DNA of 7,194 nt from the NCBI RefSeq assembly GCF_001945605.1, contig NZ_MPKA01000076.1:1-7194 (forward strand). The letters run 5' to 3'. The position numbers and the translations under genes are program-made. Of the stretch, positions 114 through 7,194 are shown piece by piece (position 1 is the first letter of the stretch; each line of letters begins with the position of its first letter). Source of the DNA: Dubosiella newyorkensis (GTDB lineage Bacteria > Bacillota_I > Bacilli_A > Erysipelotrichales > Erysipelotrichaceae). The notes under the pieces are model-generated. The model made no database searches. It had not been told where the DNA came from and saw nothing but the letters and a program-made list of their open reading frames with translations.

Positions 114-493
114 GAAGCGTCATTGACAATGGGGATCCCTAAGATAAGCTTGGGGCTTTTCAAGCTGCAGCAAAAGCTGGGAGTTTGAAAAGCAACAAGA
201 AATGGGTTCTTAGGGATGGGGCCCGTAGTCAATGGAAAGCGGAACAAATTTTTTCGGATTTGTCAAAAACAGAAATTTAGATTGTCCTCAAACTTGACAT
301 AGTACCAGATAGTGCCAAAGCAACAGAATCAGAGACGAAGGATGAACTGATTAAAATTGATGAAGATATTTCTACTGCAGAAGAGAAGAAACAATCGAAT
401 GGAGTAGTTGGAAATAAATCAGAAATATTAAAAGAGGACATAATAAGTGAATTTGAAATTAATCTTAGTGATACTGAGATATATACGAATAAA

Positions 494-3400
494 ATGTTTG
501 AATATAATTTTGATGACACTAACCGTTTTAGAGATTATTCAATAGAAGATGGTTATGGAGATGTCAATATGAGAAATTTAACGTTTACCAATCAAGATGG
601 TGAAATGTTGATTTTTCAAGAAGAGAATTTTTATGTTTATACAAAAAATAATAATGGATGCTATAAATCACGACTAAGCCCACTAGGAATGCGTTTTATA
701 AGTTGTGAAGATTTTCCCGATAAAAAAAATTATATTATAGAATTAAAAAATCCTATTTTTTCGGTTTTAGGCTACAATGGAGGATATTGGATCGAACATA
801 AGACATTGGGTGATATTTGGACAGCAGATATTTATGGCGGAATTTCTGAAGAAAAAATGGAATTAAATTTACGGCTTAATAACGGGGTCGTCGTGAGTCA
901 TATAGTGGTGGATCTAAATGAAGATTTTAAAAAGCAAATGTTAAAAGCTTTGGAAAAAGGTGAAGAAAATAAACCTGATATTCCAACACAGATTTATGAT
1001 TCTTTCTATCATGAAAATGATTTAGATTTTATTGAACAGACGTATATTGCTACTTCTCCAGAAAGCTTGAAGGAAGAATTATCCCGTATTGTTGTATTCA
1101 ATGATAATGAAAGTATGTTGGATATTTTTCTAGGAGAATGGAATGTAACAAATGTCGCGCAAGGAATCGCAAAAAATATTCTTTCTGTAAAAGCTCTTAA
1201 AGGTGGAGAAACAAGCTTTGGATTAAAACTTGGGGATAAAATAATATCTGAAGTGAACTGTAAGGTTATTCCTAAATTTACTTTATCGGAATCTAAAGTA
1301 TCTCTCGATCAAGATAAGAAAGAAGTTACTTTAACCGCAGAATCGGAGTTTATTTCGGATGAGCTGGCAAATGAAATTCTCGATAAACTAAAATGGGAGA
1401 ATAATAGTTCGGCTAAAGTTGATATCAAAAAAGAATTTAAGGATGGAAAATTTACGATCACTTTTACATTGTATCCAAGTTTGGAAGTGTATAAAGATGA
1501 GAGTTCTTCGTTAGTAATCAAAAATTTAAATATGAAAGATATTACTTTAGAAATCTTTCAAAAAGGCCATTTTGAATATAAGGAACTTTATCAGATACTG
1601 AATAGCCCGGGATTTAAAAATTCTATGATTCAGTATTTGACGAAAGATGGTAATTTCACGGCTTCGCTGCTTGTTTCTGAAAAAGATCCAAAATTTGGAA
1701 CAGCGCTGGCGAAAGCCTATTCAGATCTCTATTTTAGAGGGTTAGATGGTTGGAAGGAGATCATTGCGAGTGAGGCATCTAAAGATCTCGCGACGGATAT
1801 TCTGATTGGATATATTTATAATTCAAGTGATATTATTTCTCAAATGTCTGCAGAGAAAGAAGGGTTTTCTTTAGTCAAAAAATTAAGCGAAGCACTGAAA
1901 TGGTATTTAGCAAAAGAAATGAATGAACATTTGGAAGATGCGGGAATACTTAATCAACTGAACAAAGAAATTACTTCATTACAAGATAGCAGTGAGTTTT
2001 CAAAAGCGTTGATTAGCGGAAAGATAGACGATGTATTGGATATTCTGGTTAAAAATGGCTCAAATATCTCAGCGAAAAAGATCTCAGATTTTTTTAATAG
2101 ATTTTATAAATCAAGCGAATATGTGAATAAAGCAAGTGAATATTTAAAGAAATTCGGATATGCTGTCGATGGAATCATGGTAACGAAAGATACCATGAAT
2201 AATTTTAGTAAATTCAATGCTTTAGCCAATGCGAATAAGTATTATATTGAAATGTTGGATTATATAGAAAAAAACTGTGAATTGAAGGCAATGGTCAACG
2301 CTTCGAAAGAAGTCAAAGCATTGATTTATCGTGAATTTAGTTCTTTAGAATATGTTCTTCAAGATGCTATTCAGAAAGGTACGGACATCGCAATCAATGA
2401 AGCTCTCAAATTTGCGGGCACTAAAGTTCCTATTTTAAATATTATAAAAACCGGATTTGATTTAGGAAAATTTGCTGGAAATGCTCTGTTTAACGTGAGC
2501 AGTATGCAAGAGTCTTATGATAAGTTAAGGTGTTATACCTATCTCAATAAAGCGCTCTCATCCTGGACTATATCTAAAAACACAAAATTCGCAGAATCAT
2601 TGATTTCACAAAACAATGTCGATGCTGATAATGCGGCTTATGAATATTTGTATACTCTTGATATTTTAGCCGAAGGACGAATCGGCGGAGAAAAGACATT
2701 ACAAAAATATCTGGATTATATTTGGATGAATAAAAATGAAGAATTAATTCGATTAAGTAAGACCATTCAAGAAGGAATTGAATCTCAGAACAAGTATTGG
2801 GATTTAGGAAAACTGATGGAGAAATGTGTCACGGTTAACATTTCATGTCCGGTGGATATTCAAGTATTCGATAAAAATGGGGGTTATCTTTTTACCATCA
2901 AAGACGGAAAGGAAATGGCAGAACAATTGGACGGATTGCGTTATAACGTGGAATACGATCAATTAGTAGATGACTATAATAAAATTCTGACATTTAATCC
3001 AGAGACTGGGTATTCTTTAAAACTTGTCGGTTATTCAACGGGATGTGTTGATTATCTTGTGATGTATAAAGATGAAAATGGATTATCAAGATATAAAACA
3101 ATCAATAATATTCCGATTGAGAAAGGAACAGAGATATCAATCAAACATATCGACGAAAATGCAAAGTTGATTTTATCAGAAAACGATTTGAAGAAAATGG
3201 TTTATGAACCGGTATTAAGAGAATCGCAAAAATATCAAAAGGTCGATTCGATCGATTTAAAAGTTAAGAATAGGGTAATGGCTCCAGGAGAATCGCAACC
3301 TATTTATACTGTATTAAATCCATCCGATTCTACTATAAGCGATGTGTACTGGTCCACCAGCAATTCAGATATTATTCGCATTTCTGATGATGGAATTCTT

Positions 3401-3844
3401 ACAGCCATAAAATCGGGTACAGCCACGATTTGGGCCTATACGGTAGATGGAGCAAAAAAAAGGGTAATAATTACAGTAAGCAATCTAAATGAAATTGGAG
3501 ATAAAACGGATGATCCAATCAATGATAAGAATCCATCAGAAAAGCCAACTCCACCGATTAATGACCCAAACAAGAAACCGGATACGAACGATCCTGGGGA
3601 TACGAATAAACCAGACGAAAAACCATCAAATAATACGCCAGTTATCAAGCCGATGGTAAACAAAGGAAACGAAACCAAAGTCATTCCTGTAAAAGCGGAA
3701 TCGACCATCGAAAAAGTGAATGGATCATCTATAAAGCACTCGCCAGAAACTGGCATCGCCATTCAGAAGAGCAGCTCCATATGGATGAATATCCTCAGTT
3801 TGCTTGGCCTTGGATGGATCGTTCATAAGAAACGGAACCATTAA
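494..3844 (+). CDS. Cell-wall-anchored surface protein (Big_2 Ig-like domain, Pro-rich stalk, SPETG sortase signal). The N-terminal ~900 aa belong to no family I recognise. The start is uncertain and the gene may be 5'-truncated.
   Basis: Uninterrupted 1116-codon ORF ending in TAA 3842-3844, with a C-terminal Big_2-like segment, a P/N/D/K-rich linker and a tripartite sorting signal. There is no Shine-Dalgarno sequence before ATG 494 and no N-terminal signal peptide (MFEYNFDDTNRFRDYSIEDG...). The frame is open upstream to 281. An alternative start is ATG 569, with GGAG at 557-560. Confidence 0.85.
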   Translation: MFEYNFDDTNRFRDYSIEDGYGDVNMRNLTFTNQDGEMLIFQEENFYVYTKNNNGCYKSRLSPLGMRFISCEDFPDKKNYIIELKNPIFSVLGYNGGYWIEHKTLGDIWTADIYGGISEEKMELNLRLNNGVVVSHIVVDLNEDFKKQMLKALEKGEENKPDIPTQIYDSFYHENDLDFIEQTYIATSPESLKEELSRIVVFNDNESMLDIFLGEWNVTNVAQGIAKNILSVKALKGGETSFGLKLGDKIISEVNCKVIPKFTLSESKVSLDQDKKEVTLTAESEFISDELANEILDKLKWENNSSAKVDIKKEFKDGKFTITFTLYPSLEVYKDESSSLVIKNLNMKDITLEIFQKGHFEYKELYQILNSPGFKNSMIQYLTKDGNFTASLLVSEKDPKFGTALAKAYSDLYFRGLDGWKEIIASEASKDLATDILIGYIYNSSDIISQMSAEKEGFSLVKKLSEALKWYLAKEMNEHLEDAGILNQLNKEITSLQDSSEFSKALISGKIDDVLDILVKNGSNISAKKISDFFNRFYKSSEYVNKASEYLKKFGYAVDGIMVTKDTMNNFSKFNALANANKYYIEMLDYIEKNCELKAMVNASKEVKALIYREFSSLEYVLQDAIQKGTDIAINEALKFAGTKVPILNIIKTGFDLGKFAGNALFNVSSMQESYDKLRCYTYLNKALSSWTISKNTKFAESLISQNNVDADNAAYEYLYTLDILAEGRIGGEKTLQKYLDYIWMNKNEELIRLSKTIQEGIESQNKYWDLGKLMEKCVTVNISCPVDIQVFDKNGGYLFTIKDGKEMAEQLDGLRYNVEYDQLVDDYNKILTFNPETGYSLKLVGYSTGCVDYLVMYKDENGLSRYKTINNIPIEKGTEISIKHIDENAKLILSENDLKKMVYEPVLRESQKYQKVDSIDLKVKNRVMAPGESQPIYTVLNPSDSTISDVYWSTSNSDIIRISDDGILTAIKSGTATIWAYTVDGAKKRVIITVSNLNEIGDKTDDPINDKNPSEKPTPPINDPNKKPDTNDPGDTNKPDEKPSNNTPVIKPMVNKGNETKVIPVKAESTIEKVNGSSIKHSPETGIAIQKSSSIWMNILSLLGLGWIVHKKRNH
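3242..3478 (+). other. Bacterial Ig-like group 2 (Big_2) domain-coding segment of the surface protein
   Basis: VDSIDLKVKNRVMAPGESQPIYTVLNPSDSTISDVYWSTSNSDIIRISDDGILTAIKSGTATIWAYTVDGAKKRVIITV shows the usual Big_2 pattern: L-x-G-x-x-x-L, v-x-P-x-x-a, v-x-W-x-S-S-n-x-x-v-a-x-v-x-x-x-G-x-v-t-a-x-x-x-G-x-a-x-I-x-a. Recognised by eye, not by HMM. Confidence 0.6.
3509..3652 (+). repeat. Pro/Asn/Asp/Lys-rich low-complexity wall-spanning linker with three imperfect 12-14-aa units
   Basis: The three units are DDPINDKNPSEKPT (3509-3550), PPINDPNKKPDT (3551-3586) and NDPGDTNKPDEKPS (3587-3628), followed by NNTPVIKP. This is the typical position, just upstream of the sorting signal, of a peptidoglycan-spanning stalk. 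Confidence 0.5.
3740..3841 (+). other. C-terminal cell-wall sorting signal: SPETG motif, hydrophobic segment and basic tail
   Basis: SPETG is encoded at 3740-3754. It is followed by IAIQKSSSIWMNILSLLGLGWIV (hydrophobic) and HKKRNH (positively charged) directly before the stop. This is the classical tripartite architecture of sortase substrates, with an (S/P)PxTG-type variant instead of LPxTG. Confidence 0.75.
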
Positions 3845-3846
3845 AC

Positions 3847-3894
3847 AAAAAAAGAATCAGACCTCATGCGAGAAATCTGATTCTTTCTTTTTTT
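3847..3894. terminator. Bidirectional rho-independent terminator between the convergent surface-protein gene and the kinase operon
   Basis: Perfect inverted repeat aaagaatcaga (3851-3861) / tctgattcttt (3876-3886) around a 14-nt loop. It is flanked by an A-run at 3847-3853 (a U-run on the minus strand) and by cttttttt at 3887-3894 (a U-run on the plus strand). The minus-strand ORF 3857..4672 has its stop codon (3857-3859) inside the left arm. Confidence 0.65.
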
Positions 3895-4672
3895 GAATGT
3901 GTTCTTGCTCCATGAAGTTGAGCAGATCGTGTCGAAGCCTACGCCACTCTTCATCCGGTTGTTCCGAGCGCAAATAATAACGCAGCTGCTCACGATAGAC
4001 AGCCTCGAGGCTCTTCAAACTTTTTTTCTCTCTTTCTTTTCTGACAAAGCGACTAAGCGAAAAGAGCGTGAAAAGATTGAGCCCATACAACAAAACGACA
4101 ATGATCCAATACCAAGAATCAAAAAACATATTTTGATGGACCATGCTCACTTCAAACACAAGCAGGACCTGCAAGATCGTATTGAGCAAAAGCGTAGCCA
4201 AATAACTCAACATTTTCAGGTTTGTTAAATCGAGATTCGAAAAGAAACGCAAAAAAAGGATCGTCAAGAAAGCCATCTCAATAGTCGTTGCCCAAGTCAA
4301 TACAATTTGAAGCTGAGTAAAAGAGAAAAGATCAAAAAACGCTTTTGTAGAAAGATAGGAAATACACTGGCCAAACAATTCCACGAGAATTAAGATCGTC
4401 TCATACAACAAGATCGCAAGAACGATCCGCCTCCAGCTCTCCCTACAAAAAAGCACACGACAAAGAAGACCAAAAAATAAGCAATTCACCAAATTTTTAA
4501 GAATGACATCCACATTTGAAAGCCATAAATTGATCGGAACAAAAAGAACCACCGAAACGACCCAAATGATCAAAAAATAGAAAACAGGACGTTTTGAATG
4601 CAAATAACAAGCAAACCAAGCGGATTGGATCGCCGTCTGCAATAGAACAGCGATCAAATACCAAATCAGCAT
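3857..4672 (-). CDS. Polytopic membrane protein equal to the sensor half of an AgrC/HPK10-type histidine kinase (6-7 TM plus H-box RRLRHDLLNFM), with no ATPase domain. Probably a 3'-truncated kinase paralog.
   Basis: 271 aa with six to seven hydrophobic helices in aa 1-209, then a charged linker (KEREKKSLKSLEAVYREQLRYYLRSEQPDEEW) and RRLRHDLLNFM (His codon 3929-3931). That is the R-H-D-x-x-N box of LytTR-associated kinases. The ORF ends 18 codons after the His. Its ATG (4672-4670) overlaps the upstream gene's TGA (4668-4666) as ATGCTGA. Confidence 0.7.
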   Translation of the reverse strand: MLIWYLIAVLLQTAIQSAWFACYLHSKRPVFYFLIIWVVSVVLFVPINLWLSNVDVILKNLVNCLFFGLLCRVLFCRESWRRIVLAILLYETILILVELFGQCISYLSTKAFFDLFSFTQLQIVLTWATTIEMAFLTILFLRFFSNLDLTNLKMLSYLATLLLNTILQVLLVFEVSMVHQNMFFDSWYWIIVVLLYGLNLFTLFSLSRFVRKEREKKSLKSLEAVYREQLRYYLRSEQPDEEWRRLRHDLLNFMEQEHIQKKKESDFSHEV

Positions 4673-5526
4673 TCATCCACCTCGTTTTCTCGATCCAAAC
4701 ACAACGTGGCCGTGCTTTTACACCAACCATCCTCGATCTTTTGTGAAAATAAACCACCATGCTTACGACAAGCATTCTCGATGATCAACAAACCAAGACC
4801 GTGCTTCATTTTCTCTTTCTTTGTCGAACGACCTTTCTCGATCGAAACATTCTCCAAGACCGTATTGTCGACCTTACACACAAGAACGTTCGCCCTAACG
4901 AATAAATGAATATCGATCTTGCGCTCGTGATCCAAAGAAAGCGTCGCCTCGATCGCGTTATCGATCAAATTGGTCAACACGCTCACCAACACAAAATCAT
5001 CCAAAGCCAATTCTTTCGGAATCGCAGCCACGATCGAATGTTCGATCCCGCCCTCCTTCATCTTTAGAGCCTTGTGATAAAGAAGCGAATCCACAAGATG
5101 ATTGGGACAATAGTTTATAAAAAGCGAATCACGCTCTTCATCAAGAGCCACATCGATCTTTTCTCTCCATCGACCTTCATCCCCATTCTCGCATCCTTCT
5201 TCTTGCATGCACACTTTTAATTTCTTTTTCAAACGAGCCATATCTTCTTCCGCCTTCATCGTCGCTAAAATATGCTCATTCTCCATCTTGACCTGGAGCT
5301 CGAATGCTTGCTGATGGGCATCTTCCTCCATCTTGGAAACGAGCTGACAAAACAATCGAACTGAAAAAAAGATAGAAATAAAAAGAAGAAGAAAAATCGC
5401 CCACATCATGATTGGCAAAATACTCTTTCCTGAATTCTGTTTCGCCCAAAAAAGAACGGAAATCAGTAATCCTTCTACGATCAAATAGGCGACAAGAAAC
5501 CATCGAACCGAAAACGAAGATTTCAT
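4666..5526 (-). CDS. Membrane-bound GHKL-ATPase sensor kinase-like protein (AgrC/LytS-like, HATPase_c_5 type), 2 TM, with a degenerate H-box
   Basis: 286 aa with two N-terminal TM helices joined by a very short outer loop (AKQNSGKS). N-box VLTNLIDNAIEA at about nt 4945-4977 and G2-box HGLGL at nt 4789-4803. The PNHLVDSLLYHKALKMKEGGIE segment is typical of this kinase class. At the H-box position it reads ARLKKKLKVCM (nt 5218-5235 encode RLKKKL). Its ATG overlaps the response-regulator stop as ATGA (5526-5523). Confidence 0.85.
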   Translation of the reverse strand: MKSSFSVRWFLVAYLIVEGLLISVLFWAKQNSGKSILPIMMWAIFLLLFISIFFSVRLFCQLVSKMEEDAHQQAFELQVKMENEHILATMKAEEDMARLKKKLKVCMQEEGCENGDEGRWREKIDVALDEERDSLFINYCPNHLVDSLLYHKALKMKEGGIEHSIVAAIPKELALDDFVLVSVLTNLIDNAIEATLSLDHERKIDIHLFVRANVLVCKVDNTVLENVSIEKGRSTKKEKMKHGLGLLIIENACRKHGGLFSQKIEDGWCKSTATLCLDRENEVDEC

Positions 5527-6239
5527 TTCTCCAACTCCCTAGACTCGATCAAATATTGATGAAACGCCTCCTTGATCGAACGCTGATAACTTCTCGAAAC
5601 CGAAAGCAAAGCGCCATCCCGCATTTTCAAATCACGCACCATATACGAAGAAACGTGATCAAAATTCACGACAAACGCCCGATGCGAACGATGAAACGAC
5701 ATCGGAAGGACTTGAGACAACGCTTCAAGATCCTCCTTGATCTTGAGCGTCTGCTCCTCCATATGCACAAGCGTATACCGCTTGATCCGCTCCAAATAAT
5801 AAATCGCATTCGGATCCAAACGAACGATCGAAGAATTCGTATGGACGACGATCGAACTTGACAACTCATTGAGCAAACCGATCGCCTTGAGGATAGCAGG
5901 CTCTAAACGAGCTTCTTTTTGTGGCTTATACACAAAATAGCAATGCTCCACCTCATAGACATCGCATGCTTTTTCTAAAAAAGAACTCATAAAAATGATC
6001 ACACACAACGGATCGATCTTCTTGATCGCTTTTGCCAAAACGATCCCATCTTCACCTTTTGCCAAAACGATATCAACGATCACGATCCGCTTCTTTTCAT
6101 GAAAGCGAACATGCTCCAACAGACCCTTGCCATCTAAAAAACCAAGAACCGAAGCCGACGGAAACCGACACTCGATCCATTGGATCAAATCTTGACGGAA
6201 CGAACGATCGTCTTCACAAACAATGATTTCAAACTTCAT
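5523..6239 (-). CDS. LytTR-family response regulator (N-terminal receiver domain plus C-terminal LytTR DNA-binding domain)
   Basis: 238 aa. The receiver has an acidic pocket (CEDD, aa 8-11), phospho-acceptor Asp in IVIVDIVL (D56), IIFMSS and YFVYKP. The C-terminal half, IVVHTNSSIVRLDPNAIYYLERIKRYTLVHMEEQTLKIKEDLEALSQVLPMSFHRSHRAFVVNFDHV, matches the LytTR pattern (i-x-l-x-x-I-x-Y-x-E ... F-x-R-x-H-R-S-x-x-V-N). First gene of the operon. Confidence 0.9.
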   Translation of the reverse strand: MKFEIIVCEDDRSFRQDLIQWIECRFPSASVLGFLDGKGLLEHVRFHEKKRIVIVDIVLAKGEDGIVLAKAIKKIDPLCVIIFMSSFLEKACDVYEVEHCYFVYKPQKEARLEPAILKAIGLLNELSSSIVVHTNSSIVRLDPNAIYYLERIKRYTLVHMEEQTLKIKEDLEALSQVLPMSFHRSHRAFVVNFDHVSSYMVRDLKMRDGALLSVSRSYQRSIKEAFHQYLIESRELEK

Positions 6240-6265
6240 CTTCTTCCAACTTTCTTTTTTATAGA

Positions 6266-6294
6266 ATTATAAAACAAGAGGAAAAAAGAGGAAA
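6266..6294 (-). promoter_or_regulatory. Candidate promoter of the regulator-kinase operon: perfect -10 TATAAT plus two tandem TTTCCTCTT repeats over the -35 region
   Basis: On the minus strand, TATAAT lies at 6271-6266, 27 nt upstream of ATG 6239, with a weak GGAAG Shine-Dalgarno sequence in between. The -35 position reads TTTCCT (poor). TTTCCTCTT occurs twice with a 10-bp period (6294-6286 and 6284-6276) immediately upstream of the -10. Confidence 0.35.
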
Positions 6295-6341
6295 GCGAAT
6301 GATGCAAAAAAATACAATTAAACTGATATTCTATTCGGACA

Positions 6342-6378
6342 GAAAAAGGTCTATATCCGCTATAGCCGATATAGACCT
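6342..6378 (-). terminator. Hairpin terminator downstream of the Fe-S oxidoreductase gene remnant (could act in both directions)
   Basis: aggtctatat (6347-6356) pairs perfectly with atatagacct (6369-6378). The stem extends inward (c6357:g6368, g6359:c6366, c6360:g6365) around a TATA tetraloop. On the minus strand it is followed by TTTTTCTG. On the plus strand it is followed by atctctttatttt. It starts 16 nt after the stop at 6395-6397. Confidence 0.5.
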
Positions 6379-6394
6379 ATCTCTTTATTTTCAC

Positions 6395-6673
6395 TCAAAG
6401 CTTTGTTTTGCCGCTCAGAATATTTTGATAATCCTCCCAATTCTTTTCCAGCAAACTTGGCGTATCCAATTTATAAGGACACTTTGAAGCGCATTGATTA
6501 CAATGCAGACATTGCTCGATCTTTGCCATCTCGTTTTGCCAAGACTCGGAAAGCCAATTTTGAGAAGGCGCCCGACGCACCATCAACGACATCCTAGCGC
6601 ACTGATTGATTACGATCCCTGCAGGACAAGGCATACAATACCCACACCGTTGAAAACTGGTTTGTTTTAGTTT
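6395..6673 (-). pseudogene. C-terminal remnant (~90 aa) of a two-[4Fe-4S]-motif oxidoreductase, of the kind found fused to aldo/keto reductase domains; the 5' part is missing
   Basis: The frame is open from 6673 and reads KLKQTSFQR-CGYCMPCPAGIVINQC...EQCLHCNQCASKCPYKLDTPSLLEKNWEDY..., ending in TGA 6395-6397. The second motif is a canonical CxxCxxCxxxCP. The first motif lacks its first Cys (Phe at that position), and the frame closes within 10 codons upstream, abutting the TnpB stop codon. The track ORF 6395..6634 starts at the Met of the conserved CMPCP string, so that Met is not a real start. Confidence 0.55.
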
Positions 6674-7086
6674 TCATGCCCCGTTGCCAGGGACAGCTCC
6701 AGGCTTTGCCTGGTTGACGCTTCACAGAGGTCTGCCGATAAAGATGGTCTTACGTCCTCTCCGCGTCCGTTTTCGGCCTCCGAAGCACTCCCGGCGGCCA
6801 GTATATTGATTGCTGCATTCAGGTCACGATCCATGACCATCCCGCAGGCTTCGCAGATATAAGTACGTTCACTCAGGGCAAGCTTGGTTTTTACATGCCC
6901 GCAATGGCTGCATTTTTTCGATGTCGGTTCGAATCTTTTGATGACTGTGAGTTTCCGGCCTCTCTGGGCACACTTATATTCGAGCTGCTGACGGAGCTTG
7001 CCAAACCCGGCATCCGAGATGGCTTTTGCCAGCCTGTGATTTCTGACCATTCCCTTTACGTACAGATTGGATTTAGTATTAATGGT
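6667..7086 (-). mobile_element. tnpB: IS200/IS605-family TnpB (RNA-guided nuclease), C-terminal fragment only; N-terminal RuvC-I/WED/REC parts are absent
   Basis: NLYVKGMVRNHRLAKAISDAGFGKLRQQLEYKCAQRGRKLTVIKRFEPTSKKCSHCGHVKTKLALSERTYICEACGMVMDRDLNAAINILAAG carries three hallmarks. These are the (E)DLxVKGM box (here SNLYVKGM), the CxxC...CxxC zinc ribbon (nt 6844-6912) and the RuvC-III DRDxNAAxNI box (nt 6802-6831). TAA lies at 6667-6669. Sequence upstream of about 7070-7086 has no TnpB character. The block is visibly more GC-rich than its flanks. The 5' boundary is approximate. Confidence 0.75.
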
Positions 7087-7114
7087 GCATCCCTTAAACC
7101 TCTGAAAATTCAAG

Positions 7115-7123
7115 TGGTAGAAT
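7115..7123 (+). promoter_or_regulatory. Candidate extended -10 promoter element (TGgTAGAAT) for the plus-strand gene starting at 7170
   Basis: tggtagaat at 7115-7123 fits TGnTAnAAT. The -35 position (taaacc, 7095-7100) is poor, which extended -10 promoters tolerate. It lies 47 nt upstream of ATG 7170. Confidence 0.25.
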
Positions 7124-7169
7124 GTCATAAGAAGAACAATTTGAATTCCAGAATGAGGAGGAATGAAAA

Positions 7170-7194
7170 ATGGCAAAGCAATATGAAAAAGACT
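7170..7194 (+). CDS. Start of an unidentified plus-strand gene (MAKQYEKD...) that continues beyond the window
   Basis: Strong Shine-Dalgarno sequence GAGGAGG (7155-7161), an 8-nt spacer, ATG 7170-7172, then an open frame to the window end. Only 8 codons are visible, so no functional call is possible. Confidence 0.3.

Follow-up and report, generated by a model that had tools for sequence, protein, structure and literature searches.

Two membrane proteins of Dubosiella newyorkensis that probably represent the separated halves of an AgrC-type histidine kinase

A stretch of 7,194 nucleotides from Dubosiella newyorkensis (positions 1 to 7,194 of contig NZ_MPKA01000076.1, assembly GCF_001945605.1; analyzed here in full and termed the window) carries three tightly packed genes on its minus strand, encoding a response regulator of 238 residues, a short kinase of 286 residues and a membrane protein of 271 residues, here called the sensor. 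In the usual view a class I histidine kinase is a homodimer, and each of its chains contains the phosphorylated histidine as well as the ATPase. In this operon the two are found on different polypeptides, i.e., the sensor has the histidine and no ATPase, while the kinase has the ATPase and no histidine at the acceptor site. We think it probable that the two genes encode halves of a single AgrC-type (HPK10) kinase, forming an obligate heteromer in which the catalytic subunit would phosphorylate the sensor histidine in trans. An earlier interpretation made from the DNA letters (the sequence-only reading) had described the pair as tandem AgrC-type paralogs with complementary defects, and the open reading frames, the ATPase and the H-box are as it described them. 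The features of the operon, including the helices that correspond to the dimerization and histidine phosphotransfer (DHp) domain, are as follows.

6240-6394, minus strand: intergenic stretch upstream of the operon, with the terminator hairpin of the upstream gene, then AT-rich sequence containing TATAAT.
5523-6239, minus strand: LytTR-family response regulator, 238 residues, phospho-acceptor D56 (Pfam, direct reading).
5523-5526, minus strand: ATGA stop/start overlap of regulator and kinase (AAA-TGA closes the regulator, ATG-AAA opens the kinase).
4666-5526, minus strand: putative catalytic subunit, a short AgrC-type kinase with two transmembrane (TM) helices, DHp-like helices lacking the histidine, and an ATPase domain (Pfam, hhalign, AlphaFold2).
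5359-5499, minus strand: two-helix membrane anchor of the kinase, residues ~10-56 (AlphaFold2; aligned by hhalign with the final two TM helices in canonical kinases).
5272-5274, minus strand: codon of H85, a non-canonical, semi-conserved histidine in the motif E-H-I-L-A-T-M.
5218-5235, minus strand: degenerate H-box of the kinase, R98-L-K-K101-K-L103, with K101 at the canonical histidine site by BLASTP and hhalign.
4699-5100, minus strand: catalytic and ATP-binding (CA) domain, residues 143-276, with the N-box N186-A194 (4945-4971) and H242-G-L-G-L.
4666-4672, minus strand: ATGCTGA start/stop overlap of kinase and sensor (GAT GAA TGC TGA in one frame, ATG CTG ATT TGG in the other).
3857-4672, minus strand: putative sensor/phospho-acceptor subunit, 271 residues, seven TM helices, ending after DHp helix 1 (hhalign, AlphaFold2, profile search).
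4052-4672, minus strand: seven-helix membrane sensor domain, residues 1-207 (AlphaFold2).
3917-3934, minus strand: H-box R247-H248-D249-L-L-N252, with R, H and N invariant in the family.

The 286-residue kinase matched HATPase_c_5 in Pfam (E = 1.7e-16) and contains the N-box and HGxGL motifs expected of an HPK10 kinase, both of which are absent from the sensor. When seven short kinases were compared with ten canonical kinases using hhalign, they aligned with canonical positions 150-416 (probability 99.8, E = 2.8e-30). The AlphaFold2 model (predicted local distance difference test score, pLDDT, 77.2) contains a helix at residues 2-30, a second at 37-109 comprising TM2 and its continuation, a loop, a helix at 117-132, and the ATPase domain at 143-276. 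Its best matches in the PDB were to AgrC, namely to the kinase module (6E52/6E95, E = 3.6e-11) and to the ATP-binding domain (4BXI, root-mean-square deviation 2.9). The ATP-site residues N186, D189, N190, E193, K236, G243 and G245 show no variation among the short kinases and none in canonical kinases, and L99 in the degenerate H-box is likewise invariant among the short kinases.

The sensor gave no match in Pfam and a weak match to the staphylococcal AgrC model of NCBIfam (positions 24-235 of 414, E = 3.5e-5). Its AlphaFold2 model (pLDDT 85.6; predicted template-modelling score, pTM, 0.76) has helices at residues 2-23, 29-53, 56-74, 80-109, 120-144, 152-176 and from 184 onward. These seven membrane helices correspond to the 6-7 that had been predicted, and to the polytopic N-terminal domain of 6-7 TM helices found in HPK10 kinases. 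TM7 extends to residue 236 and is followed, after a kink, by a helix at 240-270; the long cytoplasmic helix that follows the membrane domain bears H248. Direct reading places basic residues in loops 1 and 3 and after TM7. The codon for H248 (CAC, 3931-3929) lies inside CGA-CAC-GAT, encoding R247-H248-D249, exactly where it had been located. The C-terminal helix aligns to "MRKFRHDYVNILTT" of AgrC in PDB 6E52. The protein does lack ATPase motifs, as had been stated, and it ends 23 residues past H248, not 18 as had been counted. Two other identities were considered. That the 7-TM protein might be AgrB was ruled out by the absence of a Pfam match, and a programmed frameshift joining kinase and sensor was rejected because the order is kinase and then sensor, each with its own membrane anchor.

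By BLASTP, sensor residues 189-265 aligned without gaps with kinase residues 42-118 (E = 0.010 for a single comparison), which bears out the local paralogy around the phospho-acceptor box that had been proposed. In this register W189-H248 of the sensor corresponds to W42-K101 of the kinase, i.e., H248 falls on K101. The sequence-only reading had left the acceptor residue to be located by profile alignment; when this was done with hhalign against canonical kinases, the canonical histidine again fell on K101, and there was no histidine at the site. The further claim, that the kinase has K-K-K where the sensor has the canonical R-H-D, stands with these two methods and not with MAFFT, which aligned canonical K-x-R-H-D with K91-A-E-E94-D95 and placed the histidine on E94, a better fit to the distance from the helix hairpin. 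Hydropathy cross-correlation (r = 0.30-0.34 at offsets 147 and 144, flat at 154) did not settle the register, so the choice between K101 and E94 is left to the alignments. Neither K101 nor E94 is a histidine, and the H-box R-H-D-x-x-N characteristic of HPK10 kinases occurs in the sensor and not in the ATPase-bearing protein, whichever of the two is taken.

Direct comparison of the sensor profile with that of the short kinases gave a weak match (probability 6.6, E = 0.0055), and the case for paralogy therefore comes mainly from the match of both families to the same canonical profile. By hhalign, the sensor family covered positions 41-247 of a canonical HPK10 profile, a segment that contains the H-box (probability 98.2, E = 4.3e-14). 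It has in common with the segment covered by the short kinases the final pair of TM helices and helix 1 of the DHp domain, which is what would be left by tandem duplication of a full-length gene and complementary loss. The resemblance between sensor and kinase is weak but real, and the most likely origin is a full-length kinase gene that was duplicated in tandem, each copy then losing what the other kept.

The regulator (WP_076341632) matched Response_reg (E = 3.8e-9) and LytTR (E = 1.1e-15) in Pfam, i.e., it belongs to the family of the cognate regulators of HPK10 kinases. Its translation contains D10/D11, D56 and K105, in agreement with the claim that the residues needed for phosphorylation are kept. 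Database annotation in D. newyorkensis names the three products "LytR/AlgR" regulator, "GHKL domain-containing protein" (the kinase) and "hypothetical protein" (the sensor). Both start/stop overlaps, from which translational coupling had been proposed, were read directly, and GAGGTG stands ~6 nucleotides upstream of the sensor ATG. Within D. newyorkensis, the ratio of nonsynonymous to synonymous substitution rates (dN/dS) was 0.14-0.25 for the sensor gene, 0.11-0.25 for the kinase gene and 0.15 for the regulator gene; a single sensor comparison gave 0.68, based on just 7 nucleotide differences. These ratios indicate that all three genes are under purifying selection. In some strains of D. newyorkensis (L010, 1150-2022) the kinase has 290 residues, with four more at the C-terminus, and overlaps the sensor gene by 19 nucleotides instead of 7; the sensor starts MLIW either way. 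The TATAAT in the intergenic stretch at 6240-6394 is a candidate promoter element, and a consensus promoter scan upstream of the operon did not find a minus-strand promoter.

Searching 1.84 billion representative proteins with a sensor profile yielded 51 matches at E ≤ 0.001. Nearly all are 250-310 residues long, and the end of the profile coincides with the end of the protein. Whether related loci carry a full-length version of the third gene had been left as a question by the sequence-only reading; the relatives end after the H-box, and full-length kinases account for only two of the 51 matches (431 and 442 residues), forming the weakest class (E ~1e-4). In an alignment of 38 members, which are 16-46% identical to the window sensor, the only invariant columns are R247, H248 and N252 (R-H-x-x-x-N), with D249 and Y226 at least 90% conserved. 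Counted from the histidine, the remaining chain has a median length of 14.5 residues (range 9-55; 16 or fewer in 26 of the 38), and the longer tails appear in the alignment to be of low complexity. In AgrC, DHp helix 1 ends at H+13, the hairpin spans H+14 to H+17, and helix 2 begins at H+18 (PMC6755735). Because the median end point of the sensors matches this boundary between helices 1 and 2, the family can be said to end at the DHp hairpin.

Pairwise identity within the family was 0.20 in the membrane domain and 0.22 in the linker, rising to 0.54 in a 15-residue window around the H-box. The N-terminal half of the AgrC model was matched independently by 15 of the 38 sensors, and no Pfam family matched the 38 members consistently. 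Starting instead from kinases 50% identical to the window kinase leads to loci of the same layout, where the downstream membrane proteins all terminate just past W-R-R-[LI]-R-H-D-L-[LI]-N-F. The histidine helix and the catalytic domain are in two open reading frames here, and the close relatives are all split in the same way. All named sensor members come from Erysipelotrichaceae (Dubosiella, Faecalicoccus, Amedibacillus dolichus and Floccifex porci) and are labelled "hypothetical protein". A paralog in a four-gene tandem array (L032, 3-725) has R-H-D-L-I-H-W and is the sole member seen without the H-box asparagine.

The gene orders at the related loci were as follows (protein lengths in residues).

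Window, Dubosiella newyorkensis: regulator, kinase (286), sensor (271).
L013, Firmicutes bacterium M10-2: regulator, kinase (278), two sensors.
L007, L014 and L025, Dubosiella muris: regulator, kinase (278), four sensors; a fifth sensor gene lies ~6 kb off (L028).
L015, metagenome: regulator, kinase (277), sensor (268).
L016, Faecalicoccus-like: regulator, sensor (256), kinase (276), sensor (251).
L021, metagenome: regulator, kinase (255), three sensors.
L030, metagenome: kinase (267), two sensors; of regulator and kinase, only the kinase was identified.
L031, Floccifex-like: regulator, kinase (274), two sensors.
L017, metagenome: two sensors followed by the first part of a kinase, at which the contig ends.
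L032, metagenome: four or more tandem sensors, the contig ending before any kinase gene.
L027 and L029, metagenome: sensor without an adjoining kinase.

The two kinds of gene therefore occur together as well as being complementary in content, a kinase adjoining one to four sensors in nine of the 13 kinds of locus read. A LytTR regulator was called wherever the gene tables cover that side (the window, L013, L007/L014, L015, L016, L021 and L031). The sensor paralogs of D. muris are 25-49% identical over the membrane domain and 73-87% identical over the H-box window, a pattern that fits diversified sensing onto one docking surface. Where two to four sensor paralogs are present, with diverged membrane domains and near-identical H-box helices, they probably share one catalytic subunit. 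The third sensor of D. muris exists in a 261-residue form (P0019) and a 233-residue form (L007, 6001-6702, versus L014); the shorter form lacks 28 internal residues of the membrane domain and occurs on many contigs (P0020-P0022). In the same species luxS, encoding autoinducer-2 (AI-2) synthase, lies directly upstream of the regulator gene (L001, 4517-4996; L007, 2119-2598) and is preceded by an acylphosphatase gene, an arrangement absent from the window.

The main argument for phosphorylation in trans is an ATP site that appears active and has no internal acceptor, encoded beside a protein in which an acceptor motif is the single invariant feature. From the domain content, conservation and gene order described above, we infer that the two proteins form a complex, that H248 is phosphorylated within it, and that the phosphoryl group passes to the regulator. 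The 271-residue protein would supply the 7-TM ligand-sensing domain and DHp helix 1 with the phosphorylatable H248, while the 286-residue protein, held alongside by its 2-TM hairpin, would supply a copy of the helix lacking the histidine, a short helix 2 and the ATP-binding domain. From its positive-inside loops, the sensor is predicted to have its N-terminus outside and its C-terminus inside; the kinase would have both ends inside, the two lying side by side in the membrane. The cytoplasmic helices of both proteins would leave the membrane in the same register, and could therefore pair in a hetero-oligomer. Ligand binding at the 7-TM domain would shift H248 relative to the ATP site of the partner, the catalytic domain would phosphorylate it in trans, and the phosphoryl group would then be passed to D56 of the LytTR regulator, altering transcription. 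Several sensors, where present, would have the single catalytic subunit in common or compete for it. Taken to its full extent, this becomes a modular receptor kinase, in which interchangeable 7-TM sensors, each with its own phospho-His helix, time-share one membrane-anchored catalytic subunit without a histidine, and the DHp bundle is assembled from different polypeptides; we put forward this broader model tentatively, rating it slightly below an even chance.

Several observations weigh against a split kinase. The comparison of short kinases covers nine lineages, which is a small sample. Most of DHp helix 2 is missing in three of them (L016, L021 and L030), and the geometry of the bundle must therefore be non-canonical in those lineages. 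Sensors occur without a neighboring kinase gene in L027, L028 and L029. The window contains no signal-peptide gene and no AgrB-like gene: a Pfam scan of six window proteins, all operon members included, gave no match to AgrB, and the operon genes overlap or abut, leaving no room between them for a small AgrD-type gene, so that the AgrB peptidase and AgrD precursor genes that define an agr locus are not found beside the kinase. Finally, H85 lies in a motif, E/Q-H-[ILV]-[LV]-A-x-M (also written E-H-x-L-A-x-M), that is kept in seven of the nine short-kinase lineages, making a non-canonical acceptor possible. If so, the 286-residue protein would be a self-sufficient kinase and the 7-TM protein an accessory co-sensor. 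H85 stands 105 residues ahead of the N-box asparagine, close to the ~100 residues that separate H239 from the N-box asparagine in AgrC. We nevertheless regard this explanation as quite unlikely, as all alignments place the canonical site away from H85, the L021 and L030 kinases lack it and have no histidine anywhere in the helix, and it is replaced by tyrosine in one metagenomic variant of D. muris. The sequence-only reading had listed H71, H85, H143, H151 and H163 as possible acceptors, a proposal that is now largely, though not fully, excluded: H85 apart, H143 is absent from the L015 kinase, H151 is glutamine in that kinase, and H163 is tyrosine in the D. muris and M10-2 kinases, while no histidine except that of HGxGL is conserved across the nine lineages. 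A self-sufficient kinase would also leave unexplained the invariant RHDxxN of the sensors and their exact end at the hairpin.

The sensors without kinase neighbors enter into a different alternative, in which the sensors are phosphatases of the regulator, phosphate sinks, or inhibitors that dock on it via the H-box helix, the regulator being phosphorylated by acetyl phosphate or a distant kinase and the ATPase protein being a pseudokinase scaffold. The aspartate and asparagine of the H-box contribute to phosphatase activity in other kinase families. Histidine kinase-like proteins with a conserved histidine and no ATPase are known, and have been proposed to act as phosphatases or phospho-acceptors (PMC5847659). 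A scaffold is hard to square with ATP-binding residues as conserved as those of active kinases, and the kinase gene adjoins sensor genes, with overlapping start and stop codons, in nine of the 13 kinds of locus; moreover, the orphan sensor of D. muris shares its genome with a full cluster only ~6 kb away. On this evidence we consider such a role unlikely. Decay is highly improbable, although the neighborhood is disturbed, with fragments of an IS605-type TnpB gene and of a ferredoxin-domain gene just upstream. The sequence-only reading had raised this possibility, with the third gene a truncated kinase pseudogene and the second having lost its histidine, and we reject it because the 38 aligned sensor relatives all stop just past the H-box. 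The truncated form is the rule in 51 representative clusters from several genera with a common end point, rather than a peculiarity of this genome, dN/dS is well under 1, with no sign of relaxed constraint, and the operon genes are intact and translationally coupled. An artifact of gene calling or assembly is also unlikely, as the relatives recur on hundreds of contigs. A kinase split between two polypeptides and acting in trans, which the sequence-only reading had listed among its explanations, is thus the best supported by conservation and gene context, and appears to be the sole one left that explains the invariant H-box.

The nearest known proteins are AgrC of Staphylococcus aureus and other HPK10 kinases, which work with LytTR regulators of the AgrA, ComE and PlnC type. 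The likeness extends to the polytopic sensor of 6-7 TM helices, the H-box R-H-D-x-x-N (H239 in AgrC), HATPase_c_5, the LytTR partner and 6E52 as the best structural match. However, AgrC is a single polypeptide forming a homodimer, whereas in D. newyorkensis the histidine helix and the ATPase are on separate polypeptides, each anchored in the membrane; in addition, AgrB and AgrD genes are not nearby, and there can be up to four sensor genes per catalytic gene. In laboratory complementation of EnvZ, NtrB and AgrC, dimers of a His-minus and an ATPase-minus subunit signal by trans-phosphorylation. Those were engineered point mutants of full-length proteins, whereas the arrangement described here is natural, truncated and conserved.

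Natural separation of a phosphorylatable histidine from the ATP-binding domain, on two proteins, has been described for CheA3 and CheA4 of Rhodobacter sphaeroides, where phosphorylation occurs only on mixing (PMC3591291), and for Hik36/Hik43 (PilL-N/PilL-C) of Synechocystis, which are active only together (PMC7656254). These are CheA-type, soluble or array-bound proteins with the histidine in an autonomous HPt domain, and the split falls between domains; in the Dubosiella system a membrane-bound class I kinase is divided within its DHp hairpin. The "HisKA, no HATPase" proteins (the "possible incomplete histidine kinases" of P2CS), mostly archaeal, cytoplasmic and of unknown function (PMC5847659), resemble the sensors in having a sensor part and a histidine-bearing helix without an ATPase domain. 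However, they have a full HisKA with both helices, and a catalytic partner lacking the histidine is not described in that paper. In heteromeric kinase pairs such as GacS-RetS, two different kinase-family membrane proteins contact each other via their DHp regions (PMC5992135). Both of those partners are full kinases, and their interaction is regulatory rather than constitutive. A literature search of incomplete coverage did not turn up any membrane-bound class I kinase divided inside the DHp domain, nor the sensor family, and, with the same coverage, yielded nothing relevant on Dubosiella kinases or on LytTR systems in Erysipelotrichaceae. The documented natural split kinases being CheA-type, the Dubosiella pair would add a membrane-bound class I variant, in a protein family that appears to be unannotated.

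The rest of the window contains genes of other kinds, and an Rfam scan of its whole length gave no matches. A gene on the plus strand (494-3844) converges on the sensor gene, their stop codons separated by 12 bp. It encodes a protein of 1116 residues with a Big_2 domain and a C-terminal sorting-like signal, S-P-E-T-G, after which come a hydrophobic segment and a basic tail. The G+C content is ~32%, versus ~42% for the operon. The frame seems to run on upstream of the listed ATG (250-500, plus strand) and the L010 ortholog has 1287 residues; the window copy may be N-terminally disrupted or have a miscalled start. Large surface-anchored proteins also lie beside relatives of the operon (1453 residues with SPETG in L013, 1764 residues in L021, and 620 residues with SPDTG next to the orphan sensor of L029), and such flanking proteins may be targets of the regulon. 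On the minus strand upstream of the operon, an open reading frame of 79 residues (6395-6634), with a 4Fe-4S dicluster motif (Fer4_17, E = 5.8e-7) and followed by a clear hairpin terminator at ~6347-6385, resembles the C-terminal end of a larger oxidoreductase gene that the neighboring insertion element may have cut. Beyond it, an open reading frame of 169 residues (6667-7176, minus strand) contains the C-terminal quarter of TnpB only (profile positions 294-388 of 389, E = 4.6e-31). It lies inside a patch of 51% G+C in which no Rfam RNA was found, and looks like a remnant of the IS200/IS605 family or a frame-broken gene reaching the window edge.

If the two proteins do work as halves of one kinase, they would represent a new two-component architecture, in which histidine and ATPase are separated at the DHp hairpin and only the sensor half has been multiplied. 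We know of no description of interchangeable sensors sharing one catalytic subunit among class I histidine kinases. A single regulator could then integrate different signals, from one up to at least four, and duplicating a gene would be a simple way to gain a new sensor. The system would also provide a natural setting for the old questions of cis versus trans autophosphorylation and of the passage of a membrane signal to the catalytic domain, as well as a ready modular scaffold for sensor engineering. The named members are confined to Erysipelotrichaceae of the gut, which points to unexplored signaling in these commensals.

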